Assembly: GCA_000004695.1 (NCBI GenBank)
Contig: CM000155.2
Span: forward strand, 2,336,001-2,400,000
Reading direction: 5' to 3'
Source: Dictyostelium discoideum
Taxonomy: Eukaryota
DNA: 64,000 bases
Translations under genes and position numbers: made by a program
Notes under the pieces: model-generated
What the model was told of the DNA's origin: nothing
The model's input: the letters and a program-made list of their open reading frames with translations, nothing else
Databases searched by the model: none
In this document: one piece after another, positions 21,196-22,698 of the stretch
Numbering within the stretch: the stretch's first letter is position 1
Layout of the letters: each line of letters begins with the position of its first letter

Positions 21196-21379
21196 ATGAT
21201 TACAAAAAACTTTCCCCCAAAAAAAAAAAAAAAAAGGATTTACAAAGATAATAGAGACTCAGGTAAATCATTGGTTTTGGATGGTAAGAGTGATTATTTA
21301 TCAAGTTCAATTATAAGTAAGTGCTAAATATTATTATTATTTAAAGAATAAAAAATAAAAATAATTAATTAATTATTAA

Positions 21380-21414
<35 letters not shown>

Positions 21415-21705
21415 GTTGGATTTGATACATTTAATGTAATTATTGATACAACTTTAAATTATTTAATTGTTGCTGAAAGAAAATGTGATGGTTGTACTCA
21501 ATATCCACCTTATTATAGAGAATCTCAAGTTTTTGAAAATATTCAATGTGATTCTCCTGCTTGTCATTCAATTGGTAATACTTGTGATAAACCAAATAAA
21601 TATGATCCACCAACATGTGGTTATGAAACAAAACTTCAACAATATGGTGCCAATATAAAAAGTATAATAAAAATTATTTTTTTTAAATTAAATTTTATTA
21701 ATTTA

Positions 21706-21752
<47 letters not shown>

Positions 21753-21892
21753 GCAATTTTATACAGAGATATAATATCAATAGATGATTTTAAAAATATA
21801 CCAGTTATCATATCTGCAATTTATGAACAAAGGAATGGTTTATCATTAAATTCTGCAATTTTAGGTGTTGGTCCAAGTGTATGTTTTATTAT

Positions 21893-21934
<42 letters not shown>

Positions 21935-22371
21935 AAGATATTAATATTTTAATTTTATTTTAAAATAAAGTGTTCAACATGCCCACCAAGTCCATTACAA
22001 TCATTATTATATACTTTAAAGAAACCATATATTTTTGGAATTTCATTAGATAAGAATTATTTTGGTGGTATTTCAATTGGTAAAATTGATCCATTATTAT
22101 ATACTGGTGTTATTAATTATACAACTATGAGTAAAAGAGATGGAGTTTATTCAGTATCTCCAATTTTTATTGGGTCACATTGGAATGATCAAATATATAA
22201 TTCAACTCGTAATGATATTAAAAGATTTATTATTTCATCCTCTTCATCACTTTCCTATATTCCAACTTCACCATATAAACAATTAAAACAATTTATAAAA
22301 TCTGCAGGTTGCAAATCTGGTGATTTAGATTTTTGTTCAAAAATTGATTCATTATTTAATTCTGTAGGTCT

Positions 22372-22420
<49 letters not shown>

Positions 22421-22698
22421 TAATTAATAATAAAATTTAGTGTATAAATTCAAGTCAAATTTCAATTAGTAGGTTCCCAGATATTGATCTTTACTTTGAA
22501 AAAGGTTTTATTTTAACAATTCCACCAAAAATCTATTTCCATTCAATTTCTAGAAACAACCAAGTTTTTATTTGTATGGGTATTTTGGAATCAACAGACA
22601 CAAACGCAATTTTGGGTATAAATTTAATGAGAGAACTTTATACAGTTTTTGATAATGAGAAAACATTAATTGGTTTCTCCAGAAAATAATACTTTTAT
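21196..22698 (+). CDS. Pepsin-family (A1) aspartic-peptidase-fold protein, predicted catalytically impaired; 5 exons: 21196..21316, 21416..21661, 21754..21878, 21971..22363, 22441..22698 (~380 aa)
   Basis: Splice phases are consistent across all junctions. The donors are GTAAGT, GTATAA, GTATGT and GTAGGT. The acceptors follow A/T-rich tracts. Pepsin landmarks are present: FNVIIDTTLNYLIV for FDTGSSNLWV, YIFGISLDKNYFGGISIGKIDPLLYTGVINYT, and the C-terminus AILGINLMRELYTVFDNEKTLIGFSRK. The second catalytic motif reads IISSSSSLSY instead of DTGTS. No signal peptide or propeptide exon was found upstream, so the 5' end is uncertain. Confidence 0.65.

Follow-up and report, generated by a model that had tools for sequence, protein, structure and literature searches.

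A 64,000-nucleotide stretch of Dictyostelium discoideum AX4 DNA (from contig CM000155.2; hereafter the window) carries DDB_G0293164, a single-copy dictyostelid gene whose product has the pepsin fold and has lost the second catalytic aspartate of A1 peptidases as well as the glycine of its first active-site motif. Database records for the gene carry only the names 'hypothetical protein' or 'Peptidase A1 domain-containing protein'. Taken together, conservation across dictyostelids, the predicted fold, comparison with other genomes and published expression data indicate that this gene probably encodes a secreted, non-catalytic and developmentally induced pseudoprotease of dictyostelids, and that the 377-residue model deposited for strain AX4 is most likely artefactual.

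The original prediction for this locus, made from the sequence of the window, had placed a pepsin-like protein on the plus strand in five exons with GT..AG introns (21196-21316, 21416-21661, 21754-21878, 21971-22363 and 22441-22689), which join into a 1134-nt open reading frame encoding 377 amino acids. This frame was borne out, and its product is identical to XP_629277.1 (DDB_G0293164, UniProt Q54CE2) of D. discoideum AX4. Five exons proved not to be the whole gene, which has six, the additional one lying upstream at 21058-21134. The window is extremely AT-rich and the introns are short and AT-only. A tblastn search for tandem paralogues within the window found none. The parts of the true gene are as follows.

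21058..21134, plus strand: true exon 1 (77 nt), the signal-peptide exon, corrupted in the window and recognised by collinear alignment to the comparison sequences L002, L001 and L003
21135..21236, plus strand: true intron 1, which holds the annotated AX4 start codon (21196-21198) and has the donor GG in place of GT in the window
21237..21316, plus strand: true exon 2, which corresponds to the 3' end of the exon originally predicted as the first and encodes the N-terminal strand SLVLDG as well as the beginning of ..DYLSSSIII
21416..21661, plus strand: exon 3, with the degenerate motif 1 I-I-D-T-T (D at 21445-21447) and a Cys-rich insert of the nepenthesin/BACE type
21754..21878, plus strand: exon 4, with the conserved DDFKNIPV stretch and the hydrophobic-hydrophobic-Gly motif of the N-lobe, AILGVG
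21971..22363, plus strand: exon 5, carrying the N-Y-T sequon, which is invariant, and the inactive second site I-I-S-S-S-S-S (22235-22249) in place of an expected D-S/T-G-T/S
22441..22689, plus strand: exon 6, with the end of the C-lobe (AILGINLMRELYTVFDN..IGF) and the stop codon

An active A1 peptidase requires two aspartates, each within a D-T/S-G motif, and the product of DDB_G0293164 lacks this arrangement. The first motif is I-I-D-T-T (D51-T-T of the 377-residue model, encoded by GAT ACA ACT at 21445-21453; D51 is D63 of the 389-residue protein described below). The second site is I-I-S-S-S-S-S (S253 onward, 22235-22249), which HMMER aligned residue for residue to the I-V-D-S-G-T-T of BACE2. 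Both substitutions had been read correctly in the original prediction, which left open that a corrected gene model might restore the second motif. D-[TS]-G was sought in all forward frames across the 3' half of the gene and not found, and a scan for D-[TS]-[GAST] in the three forward frames of 20330-22760 returned only motif 1 itself and, within the N-terminal linker, an RDSGKS of no relevance. Because the second site sits midway in a 393-nt exon, whose borders are kept as far as D. purpureum, and because no D-[TS]-G is available in the other frames, re-splicing cannot recover it and the second Asp stays lost. A zymogen prosegment, normally required by active secreted A1 enzymes and spanning about 40-50 residues in active A1 peptidases, is missing as well, since the predicted signal peptide ends around residue 21 and only ~15 residues precede the first beta-strand at 37-42. 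That no long propeptide is present had likewise been predicted, and fits a non-enzyme.

Despite the altered active site, the protein is a homologue within MEROPS family A1, as the Pfam domain Asp (PF00026) matched residues 39-375 over profile positions 6-313 of 315, with 55.7 bits against a cut-off of 19.9 (E 6.8e-15). AlphaFold2 supplied with a deep alignment returned a bilobal pepsin fold with a predicted local distance difference test (pLDDT) score of 92.9 and a predicted template modelling (pTM) score of 0.86; a model built on an eight-sequence alignment gave a pLDDT of 50.5 and was discarded. Foldseek and a profile search of the PDB agreed on a pepsin-like fold (plasmepsin V, 4.7e-11; BACE2, 1e-10), and the Foldseek matches included the Plasmodium histo-aspartic protease (HAP). 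Twelve Cys are invariant across eight full-length orthologues, as is the N-glycosylation sequon N-Y-T, and two further sequons are mostly conserved.

Orthologues were found in D. purpureum, P. violaceum, T. lacteum, C. fasciculata, H. album and two dictyostelid-like transcriptomes of EukProt, and the gene is also carried by close species and by other D. discoideum strains. The group covers all four dictyostelid taxon groups, in which the gene is single-copy with conserved intron positions and synteny. In none of eight dictyostelid orthologues is Asp found at the second site, which is occupied by S, S, K, K, N, E, K and K, and the first motif reads D-T/S-T/S/A, with an Asp that is invariant wherever the position is covered and a Gly that is never present. 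The orthologue of C. fasciculata (DFA_03249, P0006) has a mucin-like insert of ~60 residues at ~330-400, rich in Ser, Thr, Pro and Asn and located between two conserved C-lobe Cys, which is absent from every other orthologue.

Word-indexed searches with the single protein or the orthologue alignment returned only the eight dictyostelid orthologues, and paralogues were reached by exhaustive HMMER searching. When 1.84 billion representative proteins were searched exhaustively with a profile, no additional members of the orthologue group came up. The best non-orthologous matches (E 1e-53 to 1e-29) were dictyostelid 'Peptidase A1' paralogues and one sequence from Clastostelium, all with D-T/S-G intact at both sites. 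In an alignment of 103 sequences, motif 1 is kept in 89 of the 95 non-orthologues and motif 2 in 91 of the 95, with ~94% of them retaining both. With intact motifs in the nearest paralogues and degenerate ones in every orthologue, the gene is thus a duplicate of an active amoebozoan A1 protease. On the aligned residues, the second catalytic Asp and the Gly of motif 1 were lost before Dictyostelia diversified, in a loss specific to this orthologue group. Six further, distant relatives (P0057, P0060, P0079 with DTS / SSA, P0091 with DTT / DSS, P0112 and P0129) have degenerate motifs as well, so that decay of the active site has been repeated in the wider A1 branch.

The gene is under strong purifying selection. 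The ratio of nonsynonymous to synonymous substitution rates (dN/dS) was 0.07 in the comparison with D. firmibasis (dS 0.38) and 0.155 when a divergent D. discoideum strain was used. According to Schilde et al. 2016 (PMC5097433), the four species whose developmental expression is discussed below represent 600 My in the evolution of Dictyostelia.

No upstream exon encoding a signal peptide had been detectable according to the original prediction, and this did not hold once other genomes were compared. In four other D. discoideum strains, D. citrinum and D. firmibasis, the gene models encode 388-389 amino acids and start with MIYKKWIILVFLINCFLFVQSLDKKG, and the proteins of D. purpureum, P. violaceum and T. 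lacteum also begin with hydrophobic leaders. Signal peptides were recognised in the orthologues and other D. discoideum strains by inspection of the n, h and c regions and by hydropathy, the best 12-residue mean Kyte-Doolittle value being 2.9-3.2 in these proteins versus -0.79 in the AX4 model. In the other genomes the leader forms a separate 77-nt exon followed by an intron of ~85-100 nt, and the AX4 start codon at 21196 lies inside that intron. Accordingly, the first 41 nt of the originally predicted exon 1 (21196-21236), which encode MITKNFPPKKKKK and most of the next Arg codon, are translated intron 1. The collinear copy of the leader exon in the window (21058-21134) is garbled; it reads MI*KKGEFWGFLKNCFFFVQSLEKKG, with a stop at codon 3, and is followed by the donor GG rather than GT.

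The garbling is confined to a short patch. The comparison strain L002 (GCA_054883475.1) is 99.25% identical to the window over 11.7 kb, and 21 of the 28 substitutions between them, together with one indel, fall within 176 nt (21043..21218), the other seven being spread over the remaining 11.5 kb. This corresponds to 0.119 substitutions per nt in the patch versus 0.0006 outside (binomial tail 6e-33). All 21 copy an adjacent base in a homopolymer-like smear, as in GTGGATAATTTTAGTA, which becomes GGGGGAATTTTGGGGA in the window; the L002 version of the garbled stretch reads ATGATTTATAAAAAGTGGATAATTTTAGTA... Of the base calls made from two outgroups, 35 sided with L002 and one with the window. Undoing the 21 window-specific bases yielded a six-exon gene for a 389-residue protein (P0017) equal to that of L002 apart from K328E. 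Outside the patch the gene is intact and matches L002 at all but one base, position 22501, which is A in the window (Lys, FEKGF) and G in every other strain and species (Glu, FEEGF). This A extends an A run (GAAGAAGG to GAAAAAGG) and may be a further base-calling error of the reference rather than a real AX4 substitution. Altogether, the patch very probably stems from smeared base calling where the reference is of low quality, and the signal-less 377-residue model is most likely an artefact of that corruption; the annotated start would lie in intron 1 because the corrupted stretch destroys exon 1, pushing annotators to the ATG at 21196. A partial duplication of 'ATGATT' starts (at 21058 and 21196) was considered and rejected, the region being collinear base for base with the other strains.

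Apart from the patch and a few scattered substitutions, the remaining differences between the window and L002 are changes in the length of poly-A or poly-T tracts that reach 20 nt at most, and reflect either typical homopolymer instability or assembly uncertainty. They are located at the following positions of the window.

20596-20846, 21708-21714, 21895-21902, 22411-22419, 23752-23771, 25986-26043: sites of poly-A/poly-T length difference

Published transcriptomes show the gene to be silent during growth and turned on in the middle to late stages of multicellular development, with an induction of ~1000-fold. DDB_G0293164 bears the label 'Eukaryotic aspartyl protease' and shares a single-copy orthogroup with DLA_00038, DFA_03249 and PPL_05759; it is up-regulated at least 3-fold during development in the species of all four taxon groups, with a maximum at 20 h (Schilde et al. 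2016, PMC5097433, Table S1). The AX4 time course of Parikh et al. 2010, given in supplementary file 5 of Kin et al. 2018 (PMC6198379), shows abundant expression, rising from 0.15 at 0 h through 1.8 (4 h), 6.1 (8 h) and 25 (12 h) to 159 at 16 h, followed by 99 at 20 h and 50 at 24 h. At the slug stage the values are 56.5 in prespore and 6.0 in prestalk cells, and mature cell types show 35.9 transcripts per million (TPM) in stalk, 15.2 in cup and 0.07 in spore, next to 0.03 TPM in vegetative cells (same file). Full-text searches on DDB_G0293164 and Q54CE2 returned no paper with a mention in its main text, searches for a Dictyostelium aspartic pseudoprotease and secretome gave nothing relevant, and the gene is not listed in the supplements of PMC9117722, PMC4931340 and PMC5282741.

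Two other accounts of the AX4 locus were weighed against a reference error. If the garbled exon 1 were real, the laboratory strain would carry a null or mislocalised allele, which we regard as unlikely. The stop codon and the missing GT donor are indeed present in the window as given, and AX4 is a mutagenised, long-cultured axenic line. However, the clustering of the substitutions and the copying of a neighbouring base at every one of them bear the signature of a base-calling smear, the rest of the gene is intact, and its transcript is abundant in the AX4 time course. Alternatively, a cytosolic pseudoprotease without a signal peptide might be translated from the ATG at 21196, as in the deposited model, the frame from that position being open in the window. 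This is very improbable, as that ATG falls in an intron which the models of every other strain and species splice out, the N-terminal stretch encoded there has no counterpart in any orthologue, and the invariant Cys and conserved sequon suit a secretory rather than a cytosolic protein.

Regarding catalysis, the protein could still be a protease of a non-canonical kind. Plasmodium HAP is active despite the replacement of one Asp, and here too the first Asp (D63) is invariant in every orthologue covering the position and the cleft-forming fold is retained with high model confidence, HAP itself being among the Foldseek matches. Nevertheless, the residue standing in for the second Asp is not conserved, so residual unusual catalysis is unlikely; the Gly of motif 1 is replaced too (T/S/A) and no prosegment is present, and we therefore give this reading only a slim chance. 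Least probable of all is that a dead protease is being lost as a decaying pseudogene. The lost catalytic residues and the apparent stop in exon 1 of the window would agree with decay, but the dN/dS of 0.07, the single-copy orthologues with their introns and synteny maintained in all four taxon groups, and the strong and regulated developmental expression do not. The pseudoprotease interpretation of the original prediction was thus strengthened, with the second Asp gone from all eight orthologues of a gene that is held under purifying selection and retains the pepsin fold.

Pepsin homologues that are catalytically dead are well known in plants, insects and mammals, and TAXI, EDGP and Bg7S, Bla g 2 and the pregnancy-associated glycoproteins are examples of pepsin scaffolds that work by binding. 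The plant pseudoproteases with this fold (TAXI-I/TAXI-IIA, carrot EDGP and tomato XEGIP, soybean basic 7S globulin) are of separate origin from DDB_G0293164. Although TAXi_C matched with E 6.3e-12, TAXi_N remained under its cut-off (21.7 vs 30 bits) and the nearest relatives are active amoebozoan proteases, mainly dictyostelid A1 paralogues; assignment to the TAXI-type inhibitors was rejected and the protein placed outside the plant inhibitor clade for these reasons. Additionally, the active enzymes BACE1 and plasmepsin V outscored TAXI in both fold and sequence matching, and no plant inhibitor occurs among the best 60 sequence matches listed. Bla g 2, the cockroach allergen, keeps both Asp (DST/DTS), unlike DDB_G0293164, and both it and the ruminant pregnancy-associated glycoproteins are unrelated in lineage and biological context. 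BACE1/BACE2 and Plasmodium plasmepsin V are the closest solved structures, at an identity of only 16-23%, and differ in being active and anchored in membranes, in possessing D-T/S-G at both sites and in having prosegments.

The closest proteins by profile score are the active dictyostelid A1 paralogues (among them H. album PPL_02456, D. purpureum DICPUDRAFT_152520 and DICPUDRAFT_79102, C. fasciculata DFA_01264 and P. violaceum CYY_004389). They share the Cys-rich N-lobe insert, the overall architecture and the same organisms with DDB_G0293164, but have D-T/S-G at both sites and longer N-terminal pro-regions, and several possess a C-terminal extension of 250-400 residues that DDB_G0293164 lacks. 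In the active paralogues P0018, P0021, P0023 and P0025 (650-800 residues), the long C-terminal extension ends in a conserved module with the pattern ..C.FE[FY]..[RK]K.[FY].W....G..Y.F[WY]E..[IL].N.S...I....LST[ML]D..

These comparisons suggest a course of events in which an active amoebozoan A1 protease was duplicated and one copy had its second Asp replaced before Dictyostelia diversified, after which that copy has been kept under strong purifying selection. Its product of ~389 residues would enter the secretory pathway by means of a cleavable N-terminal signal peptide, with no zymogen prosegment to be removed, and folds into a bilobal pepsin-like domain, probably disulfide-stabilised, N-glycosylated and incapable of aspartic-protease catalysis. 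Its action would then be non-enzymatic and either extracellular or within the lumen of secretory or endosomal compartments, where it may serve as a binding or inhibitor protein on a pepsin scaffold, a role that the original prediction had also proposed. By analogy with the binding scaffolds of other lineages, the pepsin fold may be deployed during morphogenesis from slug to fruiting body to bind rather than to cut. A bolder and doubtful extension would make the protein a secreted pseudo-pepsin dedicated to multicellular development and retained throughout dictyostelid history, an independently evolved amoebozoan counterpart of TAXI/EDGP and a new regulator of how stalk and fruiting body are built, with a peptide or protein ligand held in its dead cleft. 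Candidate ligands under that extension would be a signal peptide of culmination, a component of the matrix or cell wall, or an inhibited hydrolase.

The genes flanking DDB_G0293164 were also compared. Upstream, at positions up to ~20323 of the window and transcribed divergently from the minus strand, is a gene for a STAND-type protein of ~1560 residues (DUF4062, AAA_16, NPHP3_N and WD40 repeats), which adjoins the pseudoprotease gene in D. discoideum strains, D. firmibasis and D. purpureum (L001 1-2275, L002 1-4271). Downstream, a plus-strand gene from 23313 encodes a PH-domain protein of ~305-315 residues (L001 5118-6367) and is followed by a DEAD-box helicase gene on the minus strand. Two EukProt models, P0005 and P0007, fuse the pseudoprotease orthologue to the PH-domain protein, probably through read-through mis-annotation; from these fusions it follows that synteny with the PH-domain gene is kept in distant dictyostelids.

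For users of the AX4 genome, the implication is that the reference appears to carry a garbled patch of ~180 nt, and that the curated model XP_629277.1 / Q54CE2 would thus have a wrong N-terminus; localisation predictions and expression constructs built on it would therefore be misleading. For the pepsin family, no description of a catalytically dead homologue from Amoebozoa was found in the full-text library searched, and the dictyostelid protein is an independently evolved addition to the known pepsin-fold pseudoenzymes. Being single-copy, constrained and induced so strongly in development, DDB_G0293164 lends itself as a candidate through which a non-enzymatic role outside the cell could be studied in a simple multicellular organism.
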